A DNA stretch of 64,000 nt from Macrostomum lignano (GCA_002269645.1 NIVC01001151.1:62001-126000), one strand, 5' to 3'; shown: positions 12,385 to 50,207, counted from the first letter of the stretch. Made by a program: numbers and translations. Notes: generated by a model from the sequence alone, not told the origin.

Positions 12385-14078
12385 GTAGAAATCTCCCCAC
12401 AAATCCCGATACATGTAGAAATCTCCCCCCCACAAATCCCAACACAGGTAGAAATCTCCCCCACAAATCCCGACACAGGTAGAAATCTCTCCCACAAATC
12501 CCGACACAGGTAGAAATCTCCCCTCCCACAAATCCCAACACAGGTAGAAATCTCCCCCACAAATCCCGACACAGGTAGAAATCTCCCCCCCCCACAAATC
12601 CCAACACAGGTAGAAATCTCCCCCACAAATCCCGATACAGGTAGAATCTCCCCCCACAAATCCCGATACAGATAGAAATCTCCCTTACAAATCCCGACAC
12701 AGGTAGAAATCTCCCCCCCACAAATCCCAACACAGGTAGAAATCTCCCCCACAAATCCCGACACAGGTAGAAATCTCTCCCACAAATCCCGACACAGGTA
12801 GAAATCTCCCCTCCCACAAATCCCAACACAGGTAGAAATCTCCCCCACAAATCCCGACACAGGTAGAAATCTTCCCCCCACAAATTCCAACACAGGTAGA
12901 AATCTCCCCCACAAATCCCGATACAGGTAGAATCTCCCCCCACAAATCCCGATACAGATAGAAATCTCCCCCACAAATCCCGACACAGGTAGAAATCTCC
13001 CCCCCACAAATCCCAACACAGGTAGAAATCTCCCCCACAAATCCCGACACAGGTAGAAATCTCCCCCACAAATCCCGATACAGGTAGAATCTCCCCCCCA
13101 CAAATCCCGATACAGGTAGAAATCTCTCCCACAAATCCCGAAACAGGTAGAAATCTCCCCCCCCACAAATCCCGATACAGGTAGAAATCTCTCCCACAAA
13201 TCCCGATACAGATAGAAATCTCCCCCCGCAAATCCCGATACAGATAGAAATCTCTCCCGCAAATCCCGATACAGATAGAAATCTCCCCCACAAATCCCGA
13301 CACAGGTAGAAATCTCCCCCACAAATCCCGACACAGGTAGAAATCTCCCCCCCCCACAAATCCCAACACAGGTAGAAATCTCCCCCACAAATCCCGACAC
13401 AGGTAGAAATCTCCCCCACAAGTCCCGACACAGGTAGAAATCTCTCCCACAAATCCCGACACAGGTAGAAATCTCCCCCCACAAATCCCAACACAGGTAG
13501 AAATCCCCCCACAAATCCCAACACAGGTAGAAATCTCCTCCACAAATCCCGATACAGGTGGAATCTCCCCCCCCACAAATCCCGACACAGGTAGAAATCT
13601 CTCCCACAAATCCCGACACAGGTAGAAATCTCCACCACAAATCCCGATACAGGTAGAATCTCCCCCCCCCACAAATCCCGATACAGGTAGAAATCTCTCC
13701 CGCAAATCCCGATACAGATAGAAATCTCCCCCACAAATCCCGACACAGGTAGAAATCTCCCCCCCCACAAATCCCGATACAGGTAGAAATCTCTCCCAGA
13801 AATCCCGATACAGGTAGAAATCTCTCAGAAATCCCGACACAGGTAGAAATCTCTCCCACAAATCCCGATACAGGTAGAAATCTCTCCCACAAATCCCGAT
13901 ACAGGTAGAATCTCCCCCCCACAAATCCCGACACAGGTAGAAATCTCTCAGAAATCCCGATACAGGTAGAAATCTCACCCACAAATCCCGATACAGGTAG
14001 AAATCTCTCCCACAAATCCCGATACAGGTAGAAATCTCCCCCCCACAAATCCCGATACAGGTAGAAATCTCTCCCACA
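12355..14078. repeat. ~31-bp minisatellite (ACAAATCCCGAYACAGGTAGAAATCTCCCC)n, left portion
   Basis: About 55 units with variable C-run length. The array continues in the same orientation after the Polinton. Confidence 0.97.
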
Positions 14079-14860
14079 AGTAGAAGGCAGGAGGGGGCTT
14101 CTGGGACAAAATTTTTCACCTCCTCCATAATCCACCTAAATCCATCCATATTATCCCTGACAGAATCAGAAAAAAAGGGGGGTCGCACTCGCTCCCTAAA
14201 CGTCCTCCATAATCCACCTAAATCCATCTATATTATCCCTGACAGAATCTTGAAAAAGGGGAGGGGTCGCACTTGCTCCGAAAACTTCGAACATAATCCT
14301 ATTAAATCCATCCATATTATCCCTGACAGAATCAGAGCATTATCCCTGACAGAATCAGAGCATAACAGTAGGACACCTGTTATGCTCACTGACACCGACA
14401 TCCACCCATAGCATCTTCGAAACAATCAGAAAAAAATCTACATTCTTCTCCCCATGGGGCCCACATTCAATTTGCAACACGAAACCAGATCCCTAAAACT
14501 TTAAATCCCCTAACCCAGGGTCCTTACCCTTTGAAAAAAATAAATTTTCAAAAAAAATGTTTCCAGTTGTCTCTCCGGGTTCTTATTACAAAGCGCACGA
14601 GCCTAATTACAAATCCAAGTACCGATGCAAACTTGAATGCAGCGAGTACATGAGAAAATATTGGCCTGGCGTTGATATCAATGTCCCTAATATTAATCTA
14701 GCTCTCCAACGACACTGGTTTCTTAAGTATGGAATAACCTACGTAAAAGATTACGACAGCTACTATAACTTTGCAGAAATCATTAGGCAATTGTGATTTC
14801 TTACATTCTCTCAATGATTAACGTCAATACAAACTCTTCACCGTTGAAATCAACACCCAC
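14079..14860 (+). repeat. Polinton left terminal inverted repeat
   Basis: Reverse-complement match to 27893-28741. Homology ends at ...CAACACCCAC, inside the penton 3' end. Confidence 0.9.
14557..14796 (+). CDS. 79-aa Tyr-rich hypothetical protein inside the left TIR
   Basis: ATG in AAAAAAATG context, open frame, intact paralog in the right TIR. Confidence 0.6.
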   Translation: MFPVVSPGSYYKAHEPNYKSKYRCKLECSEYMRKYWPGVDINVPNINLALQRHWFLKYGITYVKDYDSYYNFAEIIRQL

Positions 14861-15665
14861 CCCATCTTCAGTCTCAAACTGTAGCACAATCTCGTGAATC
14901 TCCTTATTACTCAATACAACTCTTTTCACTGGATTTGGTTTCTCTACCACCATCTGTCCTCCAGCTACAGAGTTGGAGATGTTGTACAAAATATTCGTTC
15001 GCTTTCCCTTAAATACCCAATCAAGACTGAGATTAGTTCTGATTAGAATATTCAAACCCTTTACAATGTCTGCAATGTTGGGTGCTAAGAACAAACCGCT
15101 TACACTTTCCCGGACCATTCTAACAGTCCCCGATGCTTGAGTGGCGGTCTGCGCAGCGGATTCTGCCTTATAAACTTTCTTCTCGAATCCCAATTCCCTA
15201 TACCAAGTGTCATCTTTAAACTCAACCTCCGCATCTTTGTGAACTTGCATGACCACTCTCATTACAGTGAGATCATAGGTTAGTTTGACAGGGAACAGTT
15301 TCTTCTCTGGCTTACTCGCATCAGGTGTCTCAAAATGGCCTCTTTTAGTAAAGACGTTTTCTAGAAAGTTATTGTAGGTATCCACACTTTGCGTGCTCAC
15401 ATGGAATACCACAGGGTCTGCTGCTGCACCTTTCCATTTGTAATAAAACTTATTATTTGCTGCCATCACATTGGGAACGTTTGACCAACCATGTGAAGTC
15501 GTTAAGATAGACATGGTAATTAGCGCCTGGATCCAGGCGAATCGCCTGCTCTAATTTTTCAACAAATATCCCGTTTGAGTCATTAATTCGCCCGGTTATT
15601 GTAATAGGAATGCTCTCCTTAGAGTGTGAAACAATGTTGTTTAGTCTTTCGGCTATGGCTTCCAT
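14801..15665 (-). pseudogene. Polinton minor capsid (penton) protein, +1 frameshift near 15490
   Basis: Joining IRLDPGANYHVYLNDFT with GWSNVPNV..NNKFYY needs removal of one T. The C-terminus I.EIVLQFETEDG.GVDFNGEEFVLTLII resembles Polinton penton proteins, and the gene is adjacent to the MCP. Confidence 0.75.
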
Positions 15666-15688
15666 TTTTTTTCACCCACAAAAAATAT

Positions 15689-16975
15689 TTAAACTTTACT
15701 GGATGAATTGTTGATCATGTTAAGCTTCACCTTCCTCTCAAATGCATAGACAATGTACAGGTCCACGGGTGTTGCGGCAGTCCTTTCAATGTTAGTCACG
15801 ATATTCACAGGGCTGTTATCAGTGGGCATTTGTCTGGCAGACACATCAGCGCCAAACATTGGATATAGAGTTCCATATTGAAGAGCAGTGATAGCAATTC
15901 CATTGTTCTCTTTCACAGCCAAGTCGACCAACTCGCTGTAAAATTTGCTAATCTTGTTCTGACTGAAATTTCCATTTTGTGGCAGTGCAGGGTAAAGATT
16001 ATCACTGATTTCATGCTGAATGGACCGCACGTCTCCATGCATGTAGCGTATAATGCTATTTGGGTTTCTCATGTTAATAATAATATACCGTGGATTGCTG
16101 CATGATCCCTCTTTAATGCAGATGTTTGTTCTAGTTTCGTTTCGCTCATCTCGACACATGTAGGCTGTGTATGCAACATCAATGTCCTTCTCTATTGCCT
16201 TAAGATAGTCTGCTTTTAGTGCGGTCTTTGGCTCAATGACTTCCAAATACAGCTCGATTCCGGTTAGCTTCACATCCATCCTAGTGTGATCCGCCCCAGT
16301 CCACAACGCTCTACTGCGATCATCTCTAGTCATCTTAAAAGTGTAGCTAAAGTTACTAGTCAGTCGATTAAATGTATTACAGAATCCACTCATGAATCTT
16401 AGTGGTACAAATACATCAACAGACCGATACAGCGGGTTCTTAGCAGCATCATCAGCACCTTGCAATGCATAGTTGTATCTCTTCTTCCTCTTTTTATAGC
16501 CACTGTCATTGGTGTCTCCTTCTTTTTCATCTGCAATAAAACCCGCACCACTTCCCAACTGAATAAAATCAGGATTCTCAATCAAACAATGAGCGTCATA
16601 GACAATTCCAAAGTTGGCGATTCGCTCCAACTCTGTGCTCCCATTCGATACACTAAACTCCTTGAACATGTACGCCCAAAAGTTACTGATCAGAGCCACA
16701 TCCGCATCATGCTTGTCAACGTTAGCACGAGCCGCATCCGCACCACCTTTTGTCTTGAATTGAAATGTCATATGGAATCCGCTCTTAAGACTGTGCACAC
16801 TAACCAAAGACGAACATCCATTGTATGTAAATGTCAGTGTTTGACCTGGACCCAAATTAGTTTCATTCTGATTTTCCTGACTGGGAACTCTTACCTGAGT
16901 CGCTTTGATTGTGCTATCATCACTCAAAATAGGCTTGTTAATTTTGTAGAAAACTGGTGTCAGTGGGTCGTTCGT
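15689..16975 (-). CDS. Polinton double-jelly-roll major capsid protein (428 codons, ACG at the expected start)
   Basis: Motifs D.STI, N...YMFK..S...G..ELE, GYKKR and FVPLRFMSGFC resemble Polinton MCP, and the size fits. The frame is open from AAAAA-ACG (16975) to TAA. Confidence 0.8.
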   Translation of the reverse strand, partial: TNDPLTPVFYKINKPILSDDSTIKATQVRVPSQENQNETNLGPGQTLTFTYNGCSSLVSVHSLKSGFHMTFQFKTKGGADAARANVDKHDADVALISNFWAYMFKEFSVSNGSTELERIANFGIVYDAHCLIENPDFIQLGSGAGFIADEKEGDTNDSGYKKRKKRYNYALQGADDAAKNPLYRSVDVFVPLRFMSGFCNTFNRLTSNFSYTFKMTRDDRSRALWTGADHTRMDVKLTGIELYLEVIEPKTALKADYLKAIEKDIDVAYTAYMCRDERNETRTNICIKEGSCSNPRYIIINMRNPNSIIRYMHGDVRSIQHEISDNLYPALPQNGNFSQNKISKFYSELVDLAVKENNGIAITALQYGTLYPMFGADVSARQMPTDNSPVNIVTNIERTAATPVDLYIVYAFERKVKLNMINNSSSKV

Positions 16976-17005
16976 TTTTTAACTAAAAATAAAATAAAAT
17001 AAGAA

Positions 17006-18217
17006 ATGAAGCGGAAAAGTAAACAGCAGATATCTGAATTGGAGAAGCTAGCACAAGCAGAGAAACGAGTTACCGGGCTAATAAATAAGGAGCAACAATC
17101 CTACAATGAGTTTGTCCAAGCAGCCACAGAGTTTCATAAGCCTGGGTATGGAGAAGCTAAGAAAAATATTGATCAGGTCAAAGAAACTATCGACGACATA
17201 CAGGAAACCCAAGTGCAAAAGGTTTTGGGCAAAATTCCAGAAGCACCACAGATACAGCCGCAACCACAACAACCACAACCACAACAACCACAACCACATC
17301 AATCACAACTAAAAGTGACAGATAACATTTTTGGACCAGTAGAGCGTGTCGAACATGATGGGAAATATGTATTTGGAATAAGTATGTGGAGAAAAAACAT
17401 TTATAATGAACCAGTGGAATATTATATCGACATAAATAAGAAACATATTTCTGTTGTCAAAGGCTCGGAAACTAAGAGCATTCCTTTCACAGAAACTTTA
17501 CTGACTTTTATGACCAAGAACCAAGAGAGAATCTCGGACAAACAGCTAAAGAACTACAAAGATCTAGTGACTTTTTCTCTTGCTAGAGATATAGAAATAC
17601 TAAAGGTCCCAGAAGTTCTGAAACACATGTACGATAGCGGTGTCAACCTGACTAAATTCAAAAAGTACAAGCACATCAAAGTATGGTTCGGTTTGCCAGA
17701 TCAGGGGGAAGTCATTGATCAGATGAAATATCTAGAACAACAACAGCAACCGCCACAACAGCAGCAACATTCCACAGAAGAACAAGTACTTAGTCAACTC
17801 GAGCAGTTAGACCCTTTGAAAGTAGCTGAATATAAAAATGATCACCCAGATGCCTGGCAACACTTAGAACAACACTCTCCAGATCGAATGAACAGAATCA
17901 AGCAAAGAGTTTTCACACCTCAACAAAGACAGGCACCACATGACAGTTCCATCTCTGAAAGTGAGCAGTCTTTTGCATCACCTCCCCAGCAGCTACAAGC
18001 CCAACCAACTCCACAACCTCAAGACCAACCACCCTCAACTGGAAAAGGCATGCCTGAATTCTACAAGCGGTTAGCTGTTCTTCTAGGAGCGGCAAAGACC
18101 GGAATGAAAGACGAGAATAGAAAAGAATTTGTCAACATCCTCAATAAAATGCTTGAGAGAAAATACATCGATAAGAGGGCGAGAGAGCTTCTGCTTTCGC
18201 GGTTCAACAAAAAATAA
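17006..18217 (+). CDS. 403-aa Gln/Pro-rich Polinton hypothetical protein
   Basis: Intact ORF. The C-terminal RLAVLLGAAKTG...EFVNILNKML resembles, from recall, a motif ending a conserved Polinton unknown protein. Confidence 0.7.
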   Translation: MKRKSKQQISELEKLAQAEKRVTGLINKEQQSYNEFVQAATEFHKPGYGEAKKNIDQVKETIDDIQETQVQKVLGKIPEAPQIQPQPQQPQPQQPQPHQSQLKVTDNIFGPVERVEHDGKYVFGISMWRKNIYNEPVEYYIDINKKHISVVKGSETKSIPFTETLLTFMTKNQERISDKQLKNYKDLVTFSLARDIEILKVPEVLKHMYDSGVNLTKFKKYKHIKVWFGLPDQGEVIDQMKYLEQQQQPPQQQQHSTEEQVLSQLEQLDPLKVAEYKNDHPDAWQHLEQHSPDRMNRIKQRVFTPQQRQAPHDSSISESEQSFASPPQQLQAQPTPQPQDQPPSTGKGMPEFYKRLAVLLGAAKTGMKDENRKEFVNILNKMLERKYIDKRARELLLSRFNKK

Positions 18218-18233
18218 ATTTCTATTTAAAAAG

Positions 18234-18614
18234 ATGCCAATTATTTTCGAAAAAGACATTGACAAATACTATGACAAAGAGGAACTTAATCTCATTAAAC
18301 GCGGATCTGGACTTTTCCCTGCAGGCCACTATCCAAGAAAAGAACGCTCTGGGAATGGCCTTGCCGATTTGATCGCTCAGGGGGCCAAGATTTTTAAGGT
18401 CATTGGAGAGAACAAAGAGAACATCAAGAACGTTGCCGAAGCGGCCGGTAGTGTAGCCACAGCAGCCAAAAAGATAAAGGATACGGTTCATGAAACCCGG
18501 AAATCAATACCAGATATTCAACCCCTTGCACCGAGTGCAGATAGTGTCGATCCAGCCATCTACGCAAAGATGAGAGCTGAATATAAGAAAGGAGGCGGTT
18601 TTAAATTTGACTAA
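18234..18614 (+). CDS. 126-aa putative protease-processed virion protein
   Basis: Intact ORF with KRGSG-LF, RSGNG-LADL and KKGGG-F motifs and an amphipathic stretch after GNG. Confidence 0.65.
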   Translation: MPIIFEKDIDKYYDKEELNLIKRGSGLFPAGHYPRKERSGNGLADLIAQGAKIFKVIGENKENIKNVAEAAGSVATAAKKIKDTVHETRKSIPDIQPLAPSADSVDPAIYAKMRAEYKKGGGFKFD

Positions 18615-18811
18615 TTTGGTGCACCCTGACGGTAAAAGAGGTCTGAGGGTGTAGGACTAGTCGGATGTAGGACTAGTCGAAAAAAGACACACACATCCCG
18701 AAAAAAGACACACACTTCCCGCAAAGAGACACACACATACACATCCCGAAAAAAAGACACACGCGTCTTAAATACACAAGTTTAAAAAGAAAAAGTTTTT
18801 TTACATAAAAA

Positions 18812-19612
18812 ATGGACTTCACAAACGACTTTCATCCCCACTGGACACGCAATCAGATAAAATTTGCTCACAACGAGATAATTCCAGGGCACTTCCGATG
18901 CATTGTTGTTGGCTCATCTGGGTCAGGGAAAACCTTCAGAGTTTTTAACATGCTCCTCAGACCTGGATTCCTCGATTATGACACACTACATATCTATTCA
19001 CCCACTCTGTATCAAGATGAGTATAAAATGCTAGTAGCGGGCCTACAGAACAAACTCAACAAGGAAGATATTATTCAATGTTTTAGACATCAAAAAGACC
19101 TCAACAGCAACCCGGAAGTTGTAGCCACTGAATACGCATAGCACATCCCAGACAATGAAAAATGGCAAAGCATTAAAGTTTTCACTTATGGAGATCCACA
19201 GATAGATCCTAAAACTAAACTCTTACCTCAACCTGATGAACTAGAAAAGGGGAGAAAGCACCTGATTGTCTTTGATGACTGCATGACAGGTCCCCAGAAA
19301 CAGATAGAAAATTATTTCACCCGGGGTAGACACAATAACTGCAATGTTATTTACATTGCCCAAAACTGGTTTGAACTGCCAAATAAAACAATTAGAGGTA
19401 ACTGTAATTTGATTCTCCTTTTCCCAACCATACCACAGGATCGACTGAAACGATTTTATAATGAGGTCATTGCCCCAGCTCACATTACATATCCAGCTAA
19501 GAACTCTAACAGAACAATATCACAGGAGGAATTTGTTAACATATGCTATGAAAAGTGGAACCAACCCTATCAGTTTGTCATGATTAATAAGGAGAAAAGA
19601 ATTTTACTTTAA
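18812..19612 (+). pseudogene. FtsK/A32-like packaging ATPase with an in-frame TAG at 19139-19141
   Basis: Walker A GSSGSGKT, Walker B LIVFDDC and RGRHNNCNVIYIAQ. The two ORF pieces are in one frame, split by a single stop. Confidence 0.93.
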
Positions 19613-19628
19613 TTTTTCATTTAAAAAA

Positions 19629-20417
19629 ATGTCTATTAATTTTGCAGGTGAGTCAACTACAGGCAACAGCACTCTCACAACTTCCTTCCTTGACAAGCGC
19701 TACATTAACACTGATGAAGAGATCCCAGAGATCAAACTGAATAAAAACAGACTGAAAGCCCTAGAGCGCTCCATGCACCAGTTGCAAATAAACATGGAAG
19801 ATCTCAGGCTTAAAGTAGCTAGACAGAAGTTTGACAGTGATAAGCTTTATGTGCCGTTGTTAAACGCAACTAATGAACTAAGGTCAGAAATAACTTCGAT
19901 AGTCTCGCTAATCAACAGCTTAAGATCGACAATTAATCTTCTGAGAAACTCCATTGATAGACGGATGCGTATTCTTGAAGGAGGAGTTTTCACAAACACA
20001 GCTAAAGTAAATAATTTAGAAGAGTTCATGACTCGGTCAACAGCGTTGCATGATAGAATTAAAGAAAACGTCGCAACCAACACAGGTAAAGTGAGGAATT
20101 TAGAAGAGTTCATGACTCAGTCAACAGCGTTGCATGATCGAATCAAAGAAAGACTTGAAGCATTAAAGAGAAAGGATGTATCACACAGTAGCTATCTAAA
20201 CGGAATGTATAGCTCTTGGGGTAAAATAATAAGGAGGCTTGATCGTCTGGAGAGAACACTCAATCTTCGTGATATTGCTATTGATGAAGCAGAATCTACT
20301 GCTCGTCTGGTCATGTCTACAGATGAAATTATCAAATTTCATCAAAATCAAATCAAATCAAAAGAAAACAGATCTTTTTTTCAAAACAATAGATCTTCAA
20401 ACCGGATAGTTTTATAA
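19629..20417 (+). CDS. 262-aa coiled-coil hypothetical protein
   Basis: Intact ORF with Leu/Ile heptads and an internal duplication of NT.KV.NLEEFMT.STALHDRIKE. Confidence 0.65.
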   Translation: MSINFAGESTTGNSTLTTSFLDKRYINTDEEIPEIKLNKNRLKALERSMHQLQINMEDLRLKVARQKFDSDKLYVPLLNATNELRSEITSIVSLINSLRSTINLLRNSIDRRMRILEGGVFTNTAKVNNLEEFMTRSTALHDRIKENVATNTGKVRNLEEFMTQSTALHDRIKERLEALKRKDVSHSSYLNGMYSSWGKIIRRLDRLERTLNLRDIAIDEAESTARLVMSTDEIIKFHQNQIKSKENRSFFQNNRSSNRIVL

Positions 20418-20444
20418 TTTTTTATTTTTTCTACGGAAAAAGAA

Positions 20445-21179
20445 ATGGCCCAACAAAATTCTCTATACGATCAGTCTCAATACGCTGAAGCTAAAATACC
20501 GACAGCACCAAACCCAATGGCACCGAATTCGAACACACAAAGCCTGAATGCACCGAATCTGAATGCACCTCAATATGAGCAGCAAAAACTCTACCCTGTT
20601 ATTACTTGTAACTCTCAACAATTTCGACTGGTGGAGATTCAAAAAATGCGAGATGATCTTGAAAAAAATATTTTTCACAACACAAAGAAAATTAAGCGCT
20701 ATGACAGCCACTGTAAATTTTTCGACTACAGCAATATGATTCTAGGATCTGTGTGTGTTCTAACTGGGTCTGCTGCAGCTGTCTCAGTGTTGCCAGTCAT
20801 CACAGCCCCAATCGCAATCCCTCTCGGCTCTGTGGGTGCTGCATGTGGACTTATTTCAGCAATTACTGGAGCATTAGCGCGAAACAGGCGAAAAAAACTA
20901 AAGCAGCTACAGGAGAAGCAAGTAAAAGAGAAAGGGGTGCACACTTCAATCATAGGGTACATTTCAAGGGCAATCGAGGATAAGTTCATTTCAGAGGATG
21001 AGTTCAAAACCATTCAGGATCTTTATGAACAATCAATTCGAATGAACTTGAACATGGTCGGTACTGATGACATGAGTCAGCTGAAAAATGAACTCGAGAA
21101 AGTTCTTCAACATTATGTGGAAAGAAAGTCGGCAAGAAGGACGAGAAATTCGGTAAGGACGACGAGAAATGCACAATGA
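20445..21179 (+). CDS. 244-aa protein with a hydrophobic hairpin (putative membrane protein)
   Basis: ~48-aa hydrophobic Gly/Ala-rich segment followed by RNRRKK. QFRL.EI and ISRAIED.FISEDEF motifs. Confidence 0.7.
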   Translation: MAQQNSLYDQSQYAEAKIPTAPNPMAPNSNTQSLNAPNLNAPQYEQQKLYPVITCNSQQFRLVEIQKMRDDLEKNIFHNTKKIKRYDSHCKFFDYSNMILGSVCVLTGSAAAVSVLPVITAPIAIPLGSVGAACGLISAITGALARNRRKKLKQLQEKQVKEKGVHTSIIGYISRAIEDKFISEDEFKTIQDLYEQSIRMNLNMVGTDDMSQLKNELEKVLQHYVERKSARRTRNSVRTTRNAQ

Positions 21180-21183
21180 ACCC

Positions 21184-21584
21184 CTATGAAACACAGCCAA
21201 GAATAATTTCCTTGTAGGTCTTTCGTGTTTTGGTCATTGCATACAAAACAGTCATGCACAGCTCACCGCAAATATCACTGCTAAGACCTTGAAGAATAAA
21301 GTCTGAGCGGTAAATTTTTTTATTTTTTTTCCCTTCATATAATTTCTTAGCTCTTCTGGTACTGCCGTCCCATAGCTATCAAAGTAATAACACTTGTGCT
21401 TGCGATTCGGATCAATCACCCAGCAAACCCAATGAGATCCTGGCTTATCAGTGGTGTCAAAGTTCATGATGCCGCATTCTTTTCTTAGAGGAAAATCGGG
21501 CAGAGTGTCCCTCATAAATATTCCTCTAAAGTTTGGGATTTCCAGTTCGTTAGCCAAATCTTCAAGAAAGTTATTTGTTGTCAT
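21184..21584 (-). pseudogene. Adenain-like cysteine protease, frameshift in an A-run near 21320-21335
   Basis: GSHW (His) and YFDSYG (Asp). The shifted frame continues KIYRSDFILQGLSSDICGELC with the oxyanion Gln and catalytic Cys. Confidence 0.9.
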
Positions 21585-21692
21585 TTTTATGTCATTTTTT
21601 TATGAGGTTTATTAAACTTTCTCTTAAAACTAAACCTAATCTCAACCTGAACCTAAACTCCAGTGCCCGAATCTAACCTCCAGTGCCCGAAT

Positions 21693-24600
21693 CTAACCTC
21701 CTAAACCTAACCTCCAATGCCCGAACGGTAGACTGTTAATATTGTCATCAAAAATGAATCTCTTGTTATCTGCACCTGACAGTCCAATCTTCTTTTGCTG
21801 AATTGTGTGAATAATATGGTTTTTAGATTGTAGCTTTGAGAACTCATGTGATGTCTTTTTGTTGCAATTCAAGGCGTCTCTGTATTCAGCTTCATTAATT
21901 TCCTTCCTAACCACACGTTTCGGAATTCCCTTTGATTTTTTAATTGGGTCTGACGACTCACATTTTACAAAATAGGACTTTGCTCTCAACCCAATGAATT
22001 CAGTGATTATGTCACCAGCAATCTCGTCCTTCATTTTCCCAATCACTTTCTTGTTAGTGGCGTCAAACACTTGATCGCCATTCTGTGTCCTGCAAGATTC
22101 ATCATACTCAGACAAGTCAAACAAATCTTTTTGCTGCAGCATGTCCTGATAAATGTCTTCTGTTTGAATGTCCATAATAAAACTGTCTGTGTCAGTGTAC
22201 AAGAGTTTCATTTTATCCTTGTACTGCTGCTTCATGCCATAGAAGAACTGGTACATCAGACGTTTTGATTCGTCGAGAACAGTGACACCTGTATAGATCG
22301 GCTTGCGCAGCGTCACCTTGGTTTTGTAAAATATGATCACACCTAAGTAGCTATTAAAGATATGGAGTTCTTTGAATGTTGGCTTTGACATATTTGCCTG
22401 AATAACAGCAGGCTCTGATGAGGTAACAAGTTTCAGGTTTGTTCTTTTCCGCTCATTCTCAAGAGTCTTGCCATAGACAGAGTTGTTGGCCAACTTAAAG
22501 AGGTTCTTGTCAAAGTCGTTGGTTGCTTTGGTCCTAAACTGGGTGTTCTTATCAATGTAGGGTTTCATCCACGCTTCCTCTGTAAATGTAAGAGCCCTGT
22601 GAACTTTGGTGACCCTGCAACCAAGTGAGATAAAATACTGAAGCAGTTTGTAATGGATTTTGTAACGTGTCTTGTTGTTTAGATTCTGTGTTAGTTTCTC
22701 TGTATGTTCTTTTTCTGTTCCTGACAGGCCAAGTTCCATTATTATCATTGGGAGTTTCGATTATTTTCGGGCACTTGATGTTCTCTGGGAAGGGTGGAAA
22801 GTCAGAGAAATAGTCGTGAAGCTCTGGTGGAATGTAAACATCAACTCATAAATGGCAGCCAATGAAAAGTCCCATTTGAATTCTGATGAGGGTAGCCATC
22901 GAAAATCTCTAACTGGAAGATCTTGACTCATCGCCCACCCGTAGAGATTATTAGCGTCCAAGTAAGTAATGTAGTTTGAGGGCTGCTCCTTATTGTAAGA
23001 TTCAATGTAGGGATTGTTTGCTTTTGCATACCTGTTAACACAAATTGAGATCCCCCTCGCTTTGACGATTCGACAAAATTGTACATGTCAATGTCTGTAA
23101 GAAGTTCAATGTACCAATCTGGATCTTGATCCCATTTCATTTTAAGCAAAGATTCCCAGCTAGTGGCAGGCAGAGACACATAATGTGCTGGATCGAGGCC
23201 ATATGCTGTGTACCAGGTGTATCTGAAGGTTTCAAACACATCGGCCAGCAGAAACACATCTGTGAGAGGTAAAGCAGGTGATACTGGAAGAAGTTTTGAC
23301 AATTAAAGTAATTATAGACATGCTTCGCGTGCTCATAGTCTTTGTCAGAGATTCCAGAGTCTGTTAGCTTTGAAAAGAACTTTTCTTGTGGTGGTAAACC
23401 TTCTTCAAATACGTGATACCCAGTAATATTTTCATAGGGGTAGAAGCCTTTCTTTCTTAAAAGTTTAAATGATTCATCACTGTTGTTAATTTGACTTGCA
23501 AATATCTTTGTATATGTACTGTACATTGTTCATCTTTTAGATTCTTACTTAGTTCGTCTAGACTGGCAGCAAGAAATTGATATGAATCCTTCAGTCTTAT
23601 TTTACCTGTACCCGAATTATCCTGTTTAATATCAACACACTTAAACTTCTCCTTGTTCTCTGCGATGCAATCAAGGTGTATGTCTGGAATCATGCCGATT
23701 TTTTCAACTATTAAATGCATGTCATAGTTCTTTGCGTTGTGACAAAATATCGTTAGATCATGAATGTTCGATTTTAGCTTTAGATTACAGGTGTTATGCG
23801 CTGCACCTCTAAATTTCCCAGTAAAGTGGCAGTGGTCCCTAACGGTCGGGTTTTTAATATTAGTGCAAGTTAACTGTTTCCTGCAGATGTGGCAATGAGT
23901 TGCTGATAGGAAATTGCTTTCATCCTCCTCAGACATCATTATTGGAACAGGTTGAAGGGTGCTAATCACTTTTTGCAACTCTAACATTCTGGCAATAAAC
24001 TGCTCCACACACTGCTCTCCAAAGAAATAATTATACTCAACAAGTCCTTTTGTAGTAATAAAGGCATATGCTACTGAGTTGGGGACATGTTTTTGAGTTT
24101 GAGTTTGTTTTTCAGTATGAGTTTGTTTTTGTGTTTCCGGCATGATTGAGCATTCGAAATCAGCATATACAACAAATGGGAGCTTCTCCATCTTGTGATA
24201 GTTCTTAAACGGAGATACTTCTCTTCAGCTGAAGGAAGAGAGCAGTTTGTCGGGTGATCCTCGCATGATAATTCATGCTCTGTTAGCTTTTCAAAGCGTT
24301 CAGGTCCACTGTAATGCTTAAGGCACAAGCGGCAGATGGCAACAGCCTCGTGATGATTATTCAACTGCTTGTGAATGAGTCTTGAAAGATCTTTAATCCA
24401 AACATAGTGAGCCTCCTCTAGTAAATTACCAATCACTAGAAGATCCACTTCAGTCCGCCTTTTCCCCTCGGATCTAAAACGTCTTTGCTACATCTGACCG
24501 GTTGAACTTTCTCAGTTTTTTCACTCCACTCAAAGACTGTGATTCTAATTTTGTTATTAAACACTTCTTCTAGCTTTGGATCTGAGAGATCGCCAAGCCT

Positions 24601-25545
24601 CCTTTGTCAAACCTGATTCCCTTCTTTTCGCATTCGATGAGATAGTAGTTGAAATAATTTTGATAATTTGAGGTTCTTTCGGGGTGGTGAGGGACACTAT
24701 CATAAAGAAGTGCAGAAAGAACTGCCCATAGAGCACAGCAATTGTCTTTATTTTTAACATTTATGCAAGCTTTTTTGCCGGCTAGCTTATGCGGGAGCTC
24801 TATATAAGAGGAGGCTTTAAGTGGGTCATATTTCATGACCATGACAGTCGCTCTTTGAATCCCTCCACGACCCATCCGGAACCTCTGGATGTAAACGCTT
24901 CAATTTTCTTATTGACATCTTGAAGGAAAGGATCCAGTGTGTCTGTAGGGGTGAATGGCTTTGCCTTTGTTGTCATGTAATACTCGAGATGCTCAGTGGG
25001 TTTCGCAGGCATATAAAACGCAATCTTGAATGATATCTGTAGTTTAAAGGTCTTGCGTGTTTTGAGTGTGTGATCAACAACTGATTGGATGCTGTCTTTA
25101 TAGTCGTAGATGTTTGCGGTGGTGCCGTTGGTGCCGTAATTGGGATTGTGTACTCTATGTAATGTTCTGTAAACTTCCTCTGTGCAAAATTAATCTCTTC
25201 AATGGCAAGCTCCGACTCTTTTAAATGGATTAATTGCTCTAATTTCTCTTGTTCCTGCTTATTTTGTGGGTACTTTGCTTTTTCACCAGTGAGAGTTTCG
25301 TATTTGTTAACTAAGTTGCGACTCCTCTCTTGGTGTTCCTTTGCAGGATTTTTTATAGGCGCATACTGGTTGAATTCTAATTGATTGATGATTTCCAACT
25401 GTTTTTCATAGCTTCCCAGGTGACCAGGGTCGGTATTAAACTTTTGTTTACATTCTTTTCTTAGTAAATTACTTTTGTCTTGAAATGAGACGCCTTTTGA
25501 AAAATATTTGTTGACTAAATCTCTTGCTGGATTGGCTTTTGGCAT
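21693..25545 (-). pseudogene. Protein-primed family B DNA polymerase (group-2/pPolB2 type), at least seven frameshifts
   Basis: In order: RGSGW..YDPLKASSYIELP, ExoI YADFE, DHCHFTGKFRGAAHNTCNL, ExoII HNAKNYD, KGFYPYE, ExoIII DVFLLADVF, PolA LDANNLYG, PolB KLANNSVYGK, PolC YTDTDS. ATG at 25545. Confidence 0.95.
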
Positions 25546-25668
25546 TTTTCTCGAAAATATAAAAAAATTTTTGAGGGTGACCACCCTGATAGAAAAGTTG
25601 AACTGTTTCTACATCCTATAAGTAGCGCTAGGTTTATTAAGCTGGATAAAGTGGGGTTTAAAACCTCA

Positions 25669-26115
25669 TCACATACGCATTATTGTAAACCCAGCATTGT
25701 GCAATGTCATGATGGCTTTGACAATGTCAGACTTGCTTACAGAATTTTCATGCTCACAATCATCAAAATCCAGGCAGCCCTCTCCTGCCTTAATTGTTAT
25801 ACCTTTGTCTCTTGCAATCTTTTGCAATTCAAGCTGGTGGGCTCTATCATTACCAGCTTTAACAGCAGTTGCTACACCTCCAGCTACACCACCTGCGGCA
25901 CTTACAGCGCCTGCAATGATCGGAATAAGAGCTGCTAATGGTAGGATTCCTCCTGACTTTTCATCTGTGATGCTGTGTCTTTGTTCATTACACTGAACTA
26001 TTTGCTGCGTGGGATCGATTTTTACTTTGACACCTTTAATTGATATAATACCTGGTTTCTTTGATTCAATGATTTTATTGAGTTTATTGATGGTTCTGGT
26101 TTCAATCTTTGTCAT
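25669..26115 (-). CDS. 148-aa putative protease-activated membrane-active virion protein
   Basis: EKSGG followed by hydrophobic ILPLAALIPIIAGAVSAAGGVAGGVATAVKA. A second site-like KAGEG motif follows. Confidence 0.75.
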   Translation of the reverse strand: MTKIETRTINKLNKIIESKKPGIISIKGVKVKIDPTQQIVQCNEQRHSITDEKSGGILPLAALIPIIAGAVSAAGGVAGGVATAVKAGNDRAHQLELQKIARDKGITIKAGEGCLDFDDCEHENSVSKSDIVKAIMTLHNAGFTIMRM

Positions 26116-26131
26116 TTTTTATTTTAATATT

Positions 26132-27144
26132 TTAATTAATTTCTGTGTCAGCCGGCATCACTAGGAGTTCAGCTCTAGTGAATGACCGTGTGGGGGATTT
26201 AGGGTTAAAGGCCTGAGATAAAAAGTAATATTCTCCAGAGTCGGAGGTGAAATGTCTGTCTATTTTATGTACATCAAGGCTGAAGTATGGATCTGTAGCT
26301 CTTCTTTTGGTGTCCTTCTCTAGCTCTCCAGGTAGATATAAAAAGCGTAGAAACTCAGAGTTTGTCAGTATGTATGGTGATTCAACTCCTGGAAGCTTAG
26401 GGTAGTTCGAGGTGTGTTTTGTGTTGTGCTTGTCTGTTCTATGAGATGACTTAAGTTCGACAGTGTCTTGTTTAATTGCATGGGACGGTTTCAATCCAGT
26501 CATGCGCGTGACTTATTGTTCAGTTGCTCTATAACAGTGGGGAGCCGGTCTGTCCACTTGGTATAGTATTGGCCACCTTTTAGTTTCAGCTCCTCTGCTG
26601 TCTGCTTAGTGAATAGTCTCTTGGCTAGAGTTAGATTGAATCTTTCCACAAAAGCCTAGTCTCTGTGGAGCTCAGTTCTGCCATAGCGAATTTTTGCGTC
26701 ATACTTATGTAGAAGTGATTTCACTGCCCCAAAGAATTCTTTACCCGGGTCCGTCATAAAGATTTGGGGGTATGTGAGCGGAGAGTTTTTATAAATATCT
26801 TGGAGGGCGGCTGCAACTGCTTCTGACTTCTTCGTCTTAAGCGGTCTCGCTTCCTTATATCTGGAGGCAACGTCTGTAATTGTAAGAGCATACTTGTAGC
26901 CTGATTCGTTGGGGAGAAACAAAAGATCTGCTTGGTGGGCTTCATTAGGTTTATAGATGCTAAAGTGAGGTCTTGTAAATTTTACTGGTGGGAAATAGAC
27001 TTGAAAGAGAGCCTGCTTAGAGAGCCACTTTTCTACTTTAGCTTTTGGTTCCTTACTTAGTTCTGCGAGTTTGGTGACTGCAGTTTTTCCTACAAAGAAT
27101 CCTTTGTCGCTGTAGTAGAGTTTTTTAAGTTTCTGATCTGTCAT
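26132..27144 (-). pseudogene. Retroviral-like (RVE) integrase with an in-frame stop (26656-26658) and a frameshift (~26505)
   Basis: DDE triad QADLLF / TDPGKEF / FVERFN. C-terminal YLPGELE..RRATDP and RSFTRAELL motifs. No chromodomain seen. Confidence 0.93.
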
Positions 27145-27175
27145 TTTTTTTAAAAAGAAAGTTTAAAATAAAATA

Positions 27176-27625
27176 ATGCAACGCTCTGGTGGTAAGTTAG
27201 ATTCACATGGACTGATAGAAAAGCTTCCTCATCCAAACAAAGGCTGGACACTTCCCGGCTATAAATATTGCGGGCCTTTGAATCCACTTGAAATACAGTT
27301 AGATACAAACGATAATCCAAATCCTGGGCATGAGCCTGTGAACGAGCTAGACTCTGTCTGCATGTGGCACGATGTTAAATATAGAGATTTTCCTGAGGAG
27401 AAGAATCGCTGGGACAAAGAAATGCTTAAGAGACTAGACAATATAGGGGCTTCAAGCGGATTTCGTGAGTCGATCGCTCGGAAGCTAGTTAAAGCTGTTA
27501 TTTTTAGTAAGACAAAACTGGGGTTCGGGGTTGAAGGCGAGGGTGGGGTGGGTTTTGCATTGCACGCACCAAGTAAAGAATTAGGAAGACTGCTGAAGGA
27601 GCTGGGGGTTCAGAGAGCAGAATGA
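27176..27625 (+). CDS. Parvovirus VP1u-type phospholipase A2
   Basis: LPGYKYCGPLN calcium-loop motif and D..C..HDVKY catalytic motif. Intact ORF with N-terminal RSGG. Confidence 0.88.
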   Translation: MQRSGGKLDSHGLIEKLPHPNKGWTLPGYKYCGPLNPLEIQLDTNDNPNPGHEPVNELDSVCMWHDVKYRDFPEEKNRWDKEMLKRLDNIGASSGFRESIARKLVKAVIFSKTKLGFGVEGEGGVGFALHAPSKELGRLLKELGVQRAE

Positions 27626-27892
27626 TTCAAGCAAGAAAATTCAGCTGGATTAGCGGGTGTTTGGGAGAAGAGAGAACCGGGAGGGGGATTTGCATTGCAC
27701 ACACCAAATAGAGACTGCGTACATCGACAGTGCATTTCCCAGTATTTGAGGTGGTTTTCCGACAGTTTTCCGGCAGTTTTCCGACAGTTTTTGTTGAGCA
27801 AAAAAAAATCCGACAGTTTGTCGGATATTTGTCGCAAACAAAAACTCATTATCTACTAATAGTAGTCCTAGCATATAGTACTCCTTATAGTA

Positions 27893-28741
27893 GTGGGTGT
27901 TGATTTCAACGGTGAAGAGTTCGTATTGACGTTGATCATTGAGAGAATGTAGGAAAAAATTACAATTGTTTAATGATTTCTGCAAAGTTATACTCGTAGT
28001 AGCTGTCGTAATCTTTTACGTAGGTTACTCCATACTTATGAAACCAGTGTCTTTGGAGAGCTTGATTAATATTAGGGACATTGATATCAACGCTGGGCCA
28101 ATATTTTCTCATGTACTCGCTGCATTCAAGTTTGCATCGGTACTTGGATTTGTAATTGGGCTCGTGCGCTTTGTAATAAGAACCTGGAGAGATGATTGGA
28201 AGCATTTTTATTGAAAATTTAATTTTTTTCGGAGGATGAGCACCCTGCGCTGATAATTTAAAGTCTTTGGGATGCGTTGCGAATTGCAAATTGAATGTGG
28301 GGAGAAGAATGCAGATTCTTTTCTGATTGTTTTAGAGATGCTATGGGTGGATGTCAGTCTCAGTGAGCATAACAGGTGTCAGTGGACATCTGTTATGCAC
28401 TGATTCTGTCAGGGATAATATGGATGGATTTAATAGGATTATGTTCGAAGTTTTCGGAGCAAGTGCGACCCCTCCCCTTTTTTATGATTCTGTCGGGGAT
28501 AATATGGATGGATTTAATGGGATTATGGAGGACGTTTTGTGAGCGAGTGCGACCCCCCCCCCTTTTTTTCTGATTCTGTCAGGGATAATATAGATGGATT
28601 TAGGCGGATTATGTTCGAAGTTTTTGGAGCAAGTGCGACCCCCATTTTTTCTGATTCTGTCAGGGATAATATGGATGGATTTAATGGGATTATGGAGGAG
28701 GTGAAAAATTTTGTCCCAGAAGCCCCCTCATGCCTTCTACT
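27893..28741 (-). repeat. Polinton right terminal inverted repeat
   Basis: Reverse complement of 14079-14860 with indels and one extra subrepeat. Confidence 0.9.
27960..28205 (-). CDS. 81-aa paralog of the left-TIR ORF
   Basis: ATG at 28205. About 16 substitutions plus an in-frame 6-bp indel relative to 14557-14796. Confidence 0.6.
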   Translation of the reverse strand: MLPIISPGSYYKAHEPNYKSKYRCKLECSEYMRKYWPSVDINVPNINQALQRHWFHKYGVTYVKDYDSYYEYNFAEIIKQL

Positions 28742-29108
28742 CCCACAAATCCCGATACAGGTAGAATCTCCCCCCACAAATCCCGATACAGGTAGAAATC
28801 TCTCAGAAATCCCGACACAGGTAGAAATCTCTCCCACAAATCCCGACACATGTAGAAATCTCCCCCACAAGTCCCGACACAAGTAAAAATCTCCCCCCAC
28901 AAATCCCGACACAGGTAGAATCTCCCCCCACAAATCCCGACACAGGTAGAAATCTCCCCCACAAGTCCCGACACAGGTAGAAATCTCCCTCCCACATATC
29001 CCGATACAGGTAGAAATCTCTCCCAGAAATCCCGACACAGGTAGAAATCTCTCCCAGAAATCCCGACACAGGTAGAAATCTCTGCCACAAATCCCGACAC
29101 AGGTAGAA
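28742..29108. repeat. ~31-bp minisatellite, right portion (same array as 12355-14078)
   Basis: Same unit and orientation. Resumes exactly at the TSD. Confidence 0.95.
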
Positions 29109-29553
29109 ATGCCAGCAGCTCAAGTTTATCTTTCCTTTAATCATGAAATGCAAAATGTTTTTTTCAGACGCCAACTTTACTATCAATCTATATTCTGAGC
29201 TCGATGGGTCAGTGTTGTGGTCATTCACAAATGACATTCAAAAAATTCAGCAAAGCAGACCTAGAATTAGTGAGCTTTTTATGCACGAGAGTAGTTCAGC
29301 CATAACCCAAGACATCAATGGCAATAAGAATCCGAAAAATTTCTATGTATTGTGTTGCTTTGTTGTAAAAATAAAATTTGTAAAAATTTCGATTTTGGTA
29401 GCTCGTAGAACAAACTTGCCTATAGTTCTGGCCATAGACGGCAGGACGGGGCTCGAGTGCCTGCTCGAGTCGAATTGCATCCGCGATGTTTTTCCTTAAA
29501 CCAGCTCAAAAATATTCATAGCCGCATCAGCCATACGATCAAGTTGTCCAACA

Positions 29554-31933
29554 ATGTCCATCGATCAGTTTCAATGCCCTACTAACGAGAATGTTAGCAA
29601 TACGACTCTGCGAACCCTTGGTGACAGCGTCCTGTTCGACGAGATCATGCTGAAAGAACTGGAGGCTAAGCAGCAGCTCGAAAGCCAGTCTGTTGAGTCT
29701 GAGCAGCTGCGCAACGTCGAAATCGAGGCGGCGGCTTCGAGGGTTCTGGCTCTGATCATGGACAGCTCGTTCAAGCGAAAATATGGACAGGACTTTGCCT
29801 ACCCAAAGTCCATCCACTGCTACCTGTTCACGCAGCAGCCGCGCAATCATACCTACGCTTTTGAGGCCTTTGCTGCGGTTGCCACGGTCACACCGAATGC
29901 GTTGAAGCGTAAAAAAGAGGAGATGATCTTTCATCCCATGTTTGAGAATGTTATCGAACGGTATACCAATTCACGAGCTAAGCCAAATCCCGTGCTCATG
30001 GAGACTCGAAACAGCGAATTCTGCTACCGGCTGTCCATCCTGGTTGAGGCTGTGCCCATCAGTGTTCAGGTGACTTCGGGCTCTCCATTCGTTTTAGAAT
30101 TTCTACCTTTAAAAAAGCTTTTTGCGACAGCTACTGCACTCCATTTTCGAGATAGTTCTAGAACCGACTATACTCAAGTCAAGACGTTTTTAGAACAGAC
30201 CAGTCCATCAAGACCTTTTTAGAACAGACCAGTCCACCACGATGTTTTTACAACAGAACACTCCATCAAGACGTTTTTTAGAACAGACCAGTCCATCAGG
30301 ACGTTTTTTAGAATAGACCCGTCCATCAAGACGTTTTTAGAACAAACCAGTCCATCAAGAGGTTTTTAGAACAGAGCAGTCCACCACGATGTTGTTACAA
30401 CAGACCCGTCCATCAAGACGTTTTTAGAACAAACCAGTCCATCAAGACGTTTTTACGAGTAGAACAGACCACTCCATCAAGAGGTTTTTAAACCTGCGAG
30501 GTACCATTCCATTATCAAGACGGTTTTATAGTCGTCAACTCCTATTGAAAAGCTTTCACACTATAATCACATTTAAATCAGTTGAAACTAAATTACGGCT
30601 CGTACATAAAGTATTTACTTAACCACACTAATTACGTTAGTCTGATAAATGCACTCTGATATTCCAACACCCGCATTCCCAGGCGTCTTTGGGATTCGGC
30701 ATGTCTAGCCTGCGACTAATTCGCCAATACGAGATCCTCTACTACATCTGGGAGACGTTCCGCCACGATCTCGAGGTCAAGAAGTGCTATTCAGACCAGC
30801 TAATCGGCATCCCCATGCCATTCGAGTTTGTCAACGTGTGCGGCAACGAGTACGACTTCGAATTCTCCGAGCACTCTATCAACTACTACGACATCCGGGG
30901 CGCCTACGTGCCAGTCAACAGCTCCAGGATACCCGGCGCCGGCAAGGGCAAACCGCTGGGCTCGTTTCTCAGCTACATGTCCATGGAGAAGCTGGGGCCC
31001 AGTCTGGCCTACATGGCCGACTTGTTAAAATCGCAAAGGAAATGGTTTAAAATGTCTACAGCGCTGAAACTGTTGGACCAAATCCTGTGCAGGCTGATGG
31101 TGCTGCACAGGTATGGCATCATCCTGGGAAACCTGGACTTTCGATACCTGAACTTTGGTGTACGCGAGGCCATCAATGTGCTCTACGTCAGCAGCTTCGA
31201 TTGCGCCGTTCAGGCGCCTACAACGCAACGACCGTTGAACTATTTCAACGAGCGCTTCGCCTCGATAGGAGCATTGAAAGGAGTGGCGCATTTTGTCAAT
31301 GACATTGAGACGGCTTTCTATCTGTTTCTGGCCATGCTGTCGCACCGGCTGCCCTGGGACCAGAAACTCCCAGTCAGTGAGACGCCGCTGACTGACCAGC
31401 AGACGCAGCAGCTTCAGCAGCCGCAATTCGACGGCTCCTGGGAAGTCGGCGGCAACACCAGGTATCAATCGACTCTTAGGACGCACCTAGACGAGAGGAC
31501 CAAGCTGTGGGACACCACCAGCTGGATAGACCGCATGCTGAACTCGTACACGCTCAGGAACCAGATGAAATCGCCAGCTCTTGAAGGCTTCGCTTTCGAC
31601 ATCATCCAAATGGTGTACCAGAAAACCAAGGAGGCCATCAGTTGCGCGTCGATTCCGCAGCAAGACTTCATGACCAACGTCATGACGCCGTCTACGACGG
31701 CAAACAACGCTTACATGGGCATTAGAAAGGTCATCGTGTCCTTCTTCCGTTTCGAAAGTCTCAGCAACAACCTTCGAGATGCCACCTGCCAGAACAAGGT
31801 GGACCAGCTGCTGGCCACTGAGCAGTCCGACGGCAGAGCACTGTGGGACCTCAACAACTGGTGCTGGAATATGTTCGAGACTTCATTCATGAGCAATGCT
31901 CGATCTTCAAGACGCAGCATCGTCAAGTTTTGA
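29554..31933 (+). CDS. Casein kinase 1-family pseudokinase; exons 29554-30069 and 30683-31933
   Basis: MEKLGPSL, F.MSTALKL.DQIL.RL..LH, RFASI.AL.G, D(I)E..FYL....L...LPW match the CK1 fold. HRD reads LGN and DFG reads SFD. Phase-0 GT-AG intron. Confidence 0.75.
30180..30480. repeat. ~29-bp degenerate minisatellite in the pseudokinase intron
   Basis: Repeated TTTTTAGAACAGACCAGTCCATCAAGACG. Confidence 0.85.
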
Positions 31934-49293: not shown

Positions 49294-50184
49294 ATGACGG
49301 ACAGTGCAAGCAACAATTCCGCTCCTACACCACCTACAACCACGCAAGCCGCACCAGTGGTTACACATGCAGTAGGAAATGCCGCCGACACTGCTTCAGT
49401 CTCCCTAGCCCACCTGAAGCTGCCAATCTTCTATTGCAACAACCCGGAAGCATGGTTTCTCACGCTGGAGGCCCAGTTTATGCTCAACAGGGTGACCAAC
49501 GAGACCGCCAAATTTTACCACCTAGTCTCTCATCTACCGGAGGATATCGCGGCTCTGCACTTGTCCGCTCAGACTCCAAAACAGTATGAACAACTGAAAA
49601 CAGCGATTACATCGACTCTGCAAAAGTCCAAGCAGGAGAAGGTTTCGGAAGTATTGCAAGTCTCGGACCTTGGAGGAGACAAGCCATCAATCTTCATGCG
49701 CAAACTCCGGAGCAAGATGGAGCAGTGCCAGATACAGCCCGACGAGGAACTCCTCAAGGCCACTCTGATGCGCTGTCTTCCACAGGACCTTCGTATTGCA
49801 CTGTCGGGATTCCAACAGCAGTCATCCCAGCAAATTTCCGAGATTGCTGACTCGATGTTGGTCGTCAGAGGCCTTAGCTCTCCATCGCCAGCGACAGTTT
49901 GCCCAATTCAGCAGGCCGGTGCAGATCGGACACCCCAACAGCGCTTTGAGCAAGCTCCACACCAACAAGCACCTGGTAAGCCCACTGGAACAGACCCATT
50001 TAAGCCTGGCCAACACCCCGTCATTTGCCGCTCACACCTCTACTATGGCCGCCGTGCTCGGTCGTGTCGCCCGTGGTGCCAGTTTCCCAAGGACAGCTTG
50101 TGTCCGATCCGAGTGCTGCATCCCAATGAAAAAACGCCATCTCAGTCGCATTCATCATCACCTTCTCGACAGCCGGAAAACTAA
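49294..50184 (+). CDS. gag: Gypsy Gag
   Basis: LKLPIF...PEAWFLTLEAQF N-terminus and C..H.YYG..A.SC..WC knuckle-like motif. Intact 296 aa. Confidence 0.85.
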   Translation: MTDSASNNSAPTPPTTTQAAPVVTHAVGNAADTASVSLAHLKLPIFYCNNPEAWFLTLEAQFMLNRVTNETAKFYHLVSHLPEDIAALHLSAQTPKQYEQLKTAITSTLQKSKQEKVSEVLQVSDLGGDKPSIFMRKLRSKMEQCQIQPDEELLKATLMRCLPQDLRIALSGFQQQSSQQISEIADSMLVVRGLSSPSPATVCPIQQAGADRTPQQRFEQAPHQQAPGKPTGTDPFKPGQHPVICRSHLYYGRRARSCRPWCQFPKDSLCPIRVLHPNEKTPSQSHSSSPSRQPEN

Positions 50185-50207
50185 GTCGCACTGCGACCAA
50201 GATCGCG

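Follow-up and report, generated by a model that had tools for sequence, protein, structure and literature searches.

Introduction

Polintons, also called Mavericks, form a family already known from most animal phyla, including flatworms, and the NCBI taxonomy places them in the class Polintoviricetes, order Amphintovirales, family Eupolintoviridae. They share terminal inverted repeats (TIRs) that start with AG or AGT, a 6-bp target-site duplication (TSD), and genes for a protein-primed DNA polymerase B (pPolB), an rve integrase, a packaging ATPase, a cysteine protease and a double-jelly-roll major capsid protein (MCP), beside which the penton gene is expected (PMC4028283). In vertebrates, 96% of Maverick copies are reported to be defective (PMC8097293). 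Among flatworms, Polintons are described as piRNA-silenced in the planarian Schmidtea (PMC8532177), and an insertion of Orthopolintovirales has been reported in Rhabditophora (10.1101/2025.04.19.649669), in a paper whose main text does not name Macrostomum. Here we describe an element of 14,663 bp (40% GC) that occupies positions 14079–28741 of a 64,000-nucleotide stretch of Macrostomum lignano DNA (GCA_002269645.1, NIVC01001151.1:62001-126000; hereafter the window, all positions being counted from its first letter). Very probably, it is a full-length but now defective Polinton/Maverick provirus of the M. lignano germ line, which lost function fairly recently and whose two ends come from different subfamilies.

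The subdivisions proposed for these elements are not uniform. Group II Mavericks are said to possess a pPolB without the ~140-aa VSR insertion of group I (criterion cited in PMC10328495), whereas another study assigns VSR-bearing polymerases to group 2 (10.1101/2023.08.22.554363), and the groupings of the two papers do not map cleanly onto each other. The latter study also holds an HNH insert to be unique to oomycete and nematode pPolB2. For adintoviruses, a phospholipase A2 (PLA2) is given as a hallmark of the Alpha module, the exemplar of which is that of Mayetiola and the PolB of which is called the archetypal pfam03175 class (PMC8502044); Alpha members are expected to group with Mayetiola in PolB, hexon and penton alike.

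Results

A Polinton/Maverick within a Host Satellite

The element starts with AGTAG at 14079 and closes with CTACT at 28741, and both of its ends are flanked by the direct repeat CCCACA. Its open reading frames (ORFs) were compared with Pfam (22 ORFs in all, the ATPase and PLA2 genes being re-read with an X at the stop). The ends and core genes are as follows.

12357–14078, no strand: host satellite of 31–32-bp units (54.5 copies), left flank and insertion target; the unit resumes in register beyond the element
14073–14078, + strand: left TSD, CCCACA
14079–14860, + strand: left TIR, 782 bp; starts with AGTAG and holds a small ORF, 84-bp subterminal repeats (14121–14336) and the 20 final codons of the gene for the penton-like protein
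14557–14796, + strand: TIR ORF, 79 aa, open in both arms; no family match in Pfam or PHROG
14801–15665, − strand: probable minor capsid protein (penton), adjoining the MCP gene; one frameshift near 15490
15689–16975, − strand: double-jelly-roll MCP; PF21738 at E = 2.4e-5 (below cutoff); frame open throughout, no start codon where the relatives have theirs
18812–19612, + strand: A32-like packaging ATPase, 266 codons; Pox_A32 PF04665 at E = 7.7e-7 with X at the stop (above cutoff)
21184–21584, − strand: adenain/Ulp1-like cysteine protease; Peptidase_C5 PF00770 at E = 0.0027 and C48 PF02902 at E = 0.0034 (both below cutoff)
21693–25545, − strand: pPolB; DNA_pol_B_2 PF03175 at E = 9.1e-5 on one piece (below cutoff)
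26132–27144, − strand: retrovirus-like rve integrase; PF00665 at E = 5.3e-11
27893–28741, − strand: right TIR, 849 bp; ends with CTACT and holds a copy of the TIR ORF (81 aa, 27960–28205) and a non-coding copy of the penton tail
28742–28747, + strand: right TSD, CCCACA; the satellite runs on to 29110

The termini match five of the six bases of the (AGT)2 motif; reading AGTAGA, they differ from the (AGT)2 or (AG)3 ends of Polintons. The size lies inside the 12.7–24.6 kb range of intact vertebrate Mavericks, and the 14 gene loci make up a single, non-redundant set with no block duplicated or missing. Because CCCACA appears roughly once in each satellite unit (46 times in the 1,722 bp on the left, 8 times in the 369 bp on the right), the TSD is good evidence of insertion, but weaker than it would be in unique DNA; by hand estimate, chance alone would yield a duplication in register ~1 time in 31. 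When the element was compared by BLASTN with the remainder of the 64-kb window, no other piece of it was found.

The host is identified by an exon of PRP4 kinase in the flank, 99% identical to BOX15_Mlig002035g1 of Macrostomum lignano (next match, 63%). The flanks carry eukaryotic, intron-bearing genes (tRNA endonuclease, MBD, innexin and Kelch/attractin-like) together with a Ty3/Gypsy-like element; Pfam matches were obtained in 8/12 frames. Third-position GC is 0.38–0.47 in the element, lower than in the four host frames for which it was determined (0.49–0.76).

For the MCP, a structural model built from an 11-sequence alignment (pLDDT 52) displays the double-jelly-roll fold of Polinton MCPs. 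Foldseek matched the model to Vp54 of PBCV-1 (E = 1.4e-8), its top matches in BFVD were viral MCPs, and VIA ranked mavirus, faustovirus and PBCV-1 first at Z 8.9 (for the mavirus MCP, root-mean-square deviation 6.0 with 310 residues aligned). The PF21738 match is shared by all ten relatives retrieved with the MCP. Sequence searches of the PDB with this protein gave no match at E ≤ 1, and a scan of bacterial and archaeal genomes produced 35 pattern matches, none of which was confirmed.

The product of 14801–15665 is probably the penton, on the basis of its position, of an Atlas feature score of 0.97 to clusters rich in viruses/Preplasmiviricota, and of motifs that resemble those of pentons. Its single-sequence model (pLDDT only 32) was too poor for use, and a fold search with it found no match at E ≤ 0.001.

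The modelled fold, taken with the Pfam matches to rve, Pox_A32, Peptidase_C5/C48 and DNA_pol_B_2, supports placement of the element among the Polintons/Mavericks, class Polintoviricetes. An initial annotation of the window had proposed this identity along with the termini, the TSD and about 14 ORFs, all of which are borne out here.

Lesions in All Six Core Genes

The same annotation had called the genome complete and its lineage capable of forming virions. It is complete in length and gene inventory, but not in integrity: none of the six core genes (pPolB, integrase, ATPase, protease, penton and MCP) is intact, so that the element does not rank among the "intact" Mavericks, in which every core ORF is uninterrupted (PMC8097293). 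The lesions amount to ~13 frameshifts, 10 of them in pPolB, two internal stops and the missing start codon of the MCP. Since all six genes are affected, this copy would be unable to replicate, integrate or build particles autonomously; a capacity to form virions may still hold for the family.

In pPolB, nine firm frameshifts (near 24860, 24575, 24470, 24210, 23510, 23260, 23050, 22845 and 22750) recur in 10/10 frameshift-aware alignments of relatives, and a probable tenth near 25130 is seen in the sole alignment extending that far. The gene is colinear with its relatives over ~1,100 aa across these shifts, and no true nonsense codon occurs along the aligned path. A stop at 22761 was considered as a further lesion and rejected, as its position falls in gaps of the alignment or outside the frame that aligns. 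The integrase has an in-frame stop (26656–26658) within its catalytic core, followed by a frameshift near 26505, and the ATPase a stop (19139–19141) between Walker A and Walker B. In the protease, a frameshift near 21310 leaves the His/Asp part and the Gln/Cys part in separate frames. Frameshift-aware alignment of the MCP with two relatives showed no frame change.

TIR Arms of Probably Different Origin

The TIRs of ~0.8 kb announced in the initial annotation do exist, but they are far from near-identical. Over 770 aligned columns, the arms match at 695 positions and differ by 75 substitutions (90.3% identity, 9.7% difference), and the alignment has 10 gaps. A substitution has a 3.9% chance of creating a stop, and the two to three nonsense codons seen thus correspond to a decay of ~0.4–0.6%, with an upper bound of 1.8%. 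Had the 9.7% difference between the arms arisen neutrally after insertion, ~23 nonsense codons would be expected (p ~2e-7). The arms therefore probably stem from two different subfamilies, brought together either in a recombinant or in an assembly chimera.

The TIR ORF, whose product (79 or 81 aa, depending on the arm) is rich in Tyr and Lys, differs between the arms at 16 positions, eight silent and eight replacement (dN/dS ~0.31, p = 0.019), and is under apparent purifying selection. In the right-arm copy of the 20-codon penton tail, 3/3 differences are silent (chance ~0.016). On the simplest view, each arm was until recently the end of a functional element of its own subfamily. With two subfamilies each under selection, the element has most likely arisen by recombination between family members sharing a host, an event documented for Polintons in nematodes (10.1101/2023.08.22.554363). 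Repeats that contain a small gene and a penton tail, with arms ~10% apart, set this element apart from described Polintons.

Two insertions in one satellite, wrongly joined during assembly, would produce an identical mosaic-end signal. The element could then be a chimera of two insertions in one satellite family, generated by mis-assembly or by ectopic recombination, and the "TSD" would be a shared target register. The arm divergence, far above the decay seen in the genes, and the presence of CCCACA in nearly every satellite unit would fit such an origin, as would the host, described as a hidden allotetraploid whose assembly is redundant (PMC12801592). We nevertheless consider it unlikely, because a chimera is hard to reconcile with a single gene set lacking any duplicated or missing block, and because the satellite resumes exactly in register beyond the element, a match that by hand estimate has a chance of ~1/31 if no target preference is assumed.

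Loss of Function

The distribution of the lesions is uneven, with 10/13 frameshifts in pPolB (p = 0.028 when the core genes are compared, 0.001 for all coding DNA), while the MCP and the accessory ORFs keep long open frames. Such a pattern might be left by a lineage that lost its polymerase first and then went on spreading for some time as a non-autonomous, helper-dependent element, keeping capsid and accessory genes. However, the longer decay that this scenario entails should have made some true nonsense codons along the aligned path of pPolB, where there are none; moreover, pPolB is the longest gene, and shifts are harder to detect in ORFs without a family match. Polymerase loss ahead of the other genes is, in our estimation, quite unlikely.

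It is very unlikely that the element is intact or nearly so in the animal, a potentially active provirus most of whose frameshifts are errors of long reads or of polishing, made because the repeat has many copies: although frameshifts outnumber stops by 13 to 2 and cluster in pPolB, although redundancy is described for the current M. lignano assembly (PMC12801592) and repeats are reported to polish badly (PMC11131425), the lesions look mutational, since three of them (two stops and the lost MCP start) are of the substitution type, precisely placed shifts are not enriched in homopolymers (1/6 in a run of at least 4 bases, against a background of 25%), the host PRP4 exons of the same window show no frame change over ~730 codons, and a sister MCP fragment (P0176, see below) is defective too.

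Our preferred reading, a full-length provirus that lost function fairly recently, has several points to contend with. A frameshift-to-stop ratio of 13:2 is unusual for plain neutral decay and, together with the clustering in pPolB, could be due in part to mis-assembly of a repeat or to an earlier loss of the polymerase. The homopolymer comparison rests on six sites, and the decay estimate presumes that lesions are visible within ORFs that have no family match. In addition, the penton assignment comes from position, motifs and a feature match rather than from a fold, and the junctions and interior are taken as they stand in the assembled sequence of this window.

From what is known of the family, the active ancestor of this provirus would have copied its linear DNA by protein-primed synthesis starting at the ends of its TIRs. 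Its rve integrase would have inserted it through a 6-bp staggered cut, here into the satellite. The A32-like ATPase would have packaged DNA into a shell of MCP and penton, to be matured by the cysteine protease, and the PLA2 and pX-like peptide may have served membrane entry. The modest substitution decay estimated above suggests a fairly recent loss of function in this copy, which could now move solely in trans, by means of an intact relative.

Accessory Genes

The remaining ORFs of the element are listed below.

17006–18217, + strand: Gln/Pro-rich ORF, 403 aa; no meaningful family match (Pfam, PHROG)
18234–18614, + strand: ORF of 126 aa; a GSG motif precedes an amphipathic Ala/Lys helix; unmatched in Pfam and PHROG
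19629–20417, + strand: coiled-coil ORF, 262 aa, with an internal 84-bp repeat; weak coiled-coil matches only in Pfam
20445–21179, + strand: 244-aa ORF; by hydropathy, a hydrophobic hairpin (residues 97–145) flanked by helices
25669–26115, − strand: pX/mu-like protein, 148 aa; Adeno_PX at E = 4.4e-7 (above cutoff); frame open
27176–27625, + strand: PLA2 of the parvovirus VP1 type, 149 aa; Phospholip_A2_4 at E = 6.8e-14, with Ca-loop and HD motifs present

The PLA2 gave weak matches to AAV VP1 (best E = 0.018). Its frame continues for 77 codons beyond the stop, which may therefore be a lesion truncating the gene; when the PLA2 was read through the stop with an X, it had no match to Adeno_PX. In the pX-like protein, a hydrophobic segment (residues 53–84) follows a GG motif, as in adenovirus pX/mu. 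The entry toolkit attributed to the element by the initial annotation is accordingly present as genes (PLA2, the pX-like protein and the two-helix hydrophobic ORF), but it is largely known from adintoviruses already, and its part in entry is putative.

The 244-aa ORF had an Atlas score of 0.93 to clusters at low recognition, which we treat as a lead only. The 126-aa product may be a small core protein; it may be akin to the "cupiennin-like" ORFs of adintoviruses. Eleven of the 14 element ORFs had no match in PHROGs, Rfam returned no match, and an exact look-up of nine window ORFs in the protein collection found none of them (0/9).

The non-coding spacer directly 5′ of the ATPase gene (18615–18811) contains 21- and 27-bp tandem repeats and is possibly regulatory. 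An A-rich stretch lies directly upstream of 14/14 gene starts examined (14557–28205). A sigma-70 scan was set aside as irrelevant for this host.

Relatives and Placement

A search with the MCP retrieved ten proteins, seven at 70–77% and three at 41–45% identity, and a profile search extended the set to 633 proteins at E ≤ 0.001. By BLASTP against 167 fetched proteins, identities were 69–77%, then 41–46%, and then ~27% or less for full-length sequences (short fragments aside), such that beyond its small clade this capsid protein is divergent among Polintons. The relatives sit on contigs of 0.6–12 kb, and the close ones, at 69–77%, have open frames. The fragment P0176, of 157 aa, is 96% identical to our MCP over 114 residues; it derives from a 598-base contig and its central part is deleted in frame, and by this evidence it is a second defective member of the family. 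The 96% fragment and the open-frame MCPs at 69–77% speak for activity of the family.

With the C-terminal piece of pPolB, a search covering proteins of 623–2000 aa, which could miss closer fragmentary relatives, gave 630 relatives of at least 623 aa at E ≤ 1e-20; the best full-length ones are 47–49% identical. The named hosts are a nemertean, cnidarians, a crinoid, a sponge, a spider, insects (midge and wasps) and a snake. In a tree that kept 59 of 121 rows, with no reference groups among them, the pPolB of the window sits on a long branch, and no close relative receives support as its sister. TBLASTN of the same piece against phages gave no match. The lineage is distinct and apparently undescribed, the latter in a comparison made without Repbase/Dfam consensus sequences. 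Literature searches, limited to papers outside subscription, found none describing a Macrostomum Polinton, and the five supplements of the M. lignano genome assembly paper (PMC12801592) mention neither Polinton nor Maverick.

As regards the place of the element within the family, its pPolB bears vOTU-like Cys/His motifs, an EndoVII-like insert (Pfam Endonuclease_7) and no VSR insert. A VSR-like motif is absent from the window and from 120/120 pPolB relatives, and the segment before motif A has a median of 44 aa in 112 relatives. The pPolB is thus group II-like by the absence of VSR in a comparison with these relatives; the initial annotation's "group 2" would agree with this, and with PLA2 as an Alpha hallmark.

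The PLA2 gene, the pX-like domain, the OTU-type motifs in PolB and the lack of a VSR insert are all shared with Alpha adintoviruses, and the midge, wasp, spider, cnidarian and snake relatives belong to host groups listed under Alpha in PMC8502044. There are differences as well. PLA2 and pX are here encoded separately, on opposite strands and to either side of the integrase gene, rather than as a fused PLA2X; the best pPolB identity is ~49%, on a long branch, the Mayetiola exemplar having been compared by description only. Scores for PF03175 are weak, with a match in 3/9 pPolB relatives. This weakness fits Starrett's wording for Beta; the host spectrum and the absence of VSR favour Alpha. Because PLA2 is not fused to pX, PF03175 is weak and the papers' groupings map poorly, we class the element as a Polinton, above the level of genus.

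Nematode Mavericks share the core gene set, but no fusogen-like gene was detected in our element. An EndoVII-like motif occurs in this pPolB and in 90/120 relatives, in contrast to the restricted range held for the HNH insert, with which identity is not implied. With the Polintons of Schmidtea mediterranea, the element shares the host phylum, the likeness being by description only.

Surroundings of the Element

Host introns and spacers are dense with distinct minisatellites (64 TRF rows for the whole window). To the right of the element, near the junction, there are two long single frames on the + strand, 29500–30222 and 30641–31933; the latter, of 430 codons, looks by eye like a divergent casein-kinase-like protein and has no Pfam match at E ≤ 0.001. 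Farther on, a broken Ty3/Gypsy-like retroelement (49243–52835, + strand) comprises DUF7041 gag-like, reverse transcriptase/RNase H and integrase parts in several frames, and a 91-bp inverted repeat (60016–60106 and 62094–62184, 97% complementary, ~2 kb apart) possibly marks a small DNA transposon.

A repeat of ~630–660 bp resembling a miniature inverted-repeat transposable element is present in two copies (~9508–10135 and 39710–40370), with CAAGG...CCTTG ends and long imperfect TIRs. Its second copy lies between two innexin exons, with a flanking duplication that matches at 7/8 positions and is hAT-like. The terminal 10-mer of the Polinton, GTAGAAGGCA, is found also at 9561, 10075 and 40322, its total count of 5 being at chance level; these three sites were rejected as element pieces, as they belong to this unrelated repeat.

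Implications

Defective full-length copies are the usual state of Polintons, and the locus alone would not surprise a specialist. What it adds to a widespread family is Macrostomum as a host and a divergent capsid lineage. Ends derived from different subfamilies would bear on the homogenisation of TIRs and on recombination between co-resident Polintons, and the open-frame MCP relatives mean that a model organism may yet yield an intact member of the family.

A bolder reading, which we hold to be doubtful but worth stating, is that Macrostomum hosts a deeply divergent Polinton lineage, active until recently or even now, that has an MCP clade to itself, a split PLA2/pX and a selected TIR gene, and in which at least two subfamilies replicated side by side and swapped ends and intact members still make particles. 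Maverick particles are described as not yet observed (PMC8097293). If that reading were true, M. lignano, amenable to routine culture and genetics, would offer a tractable laboratory host for the question whether animal Polintons form virions.

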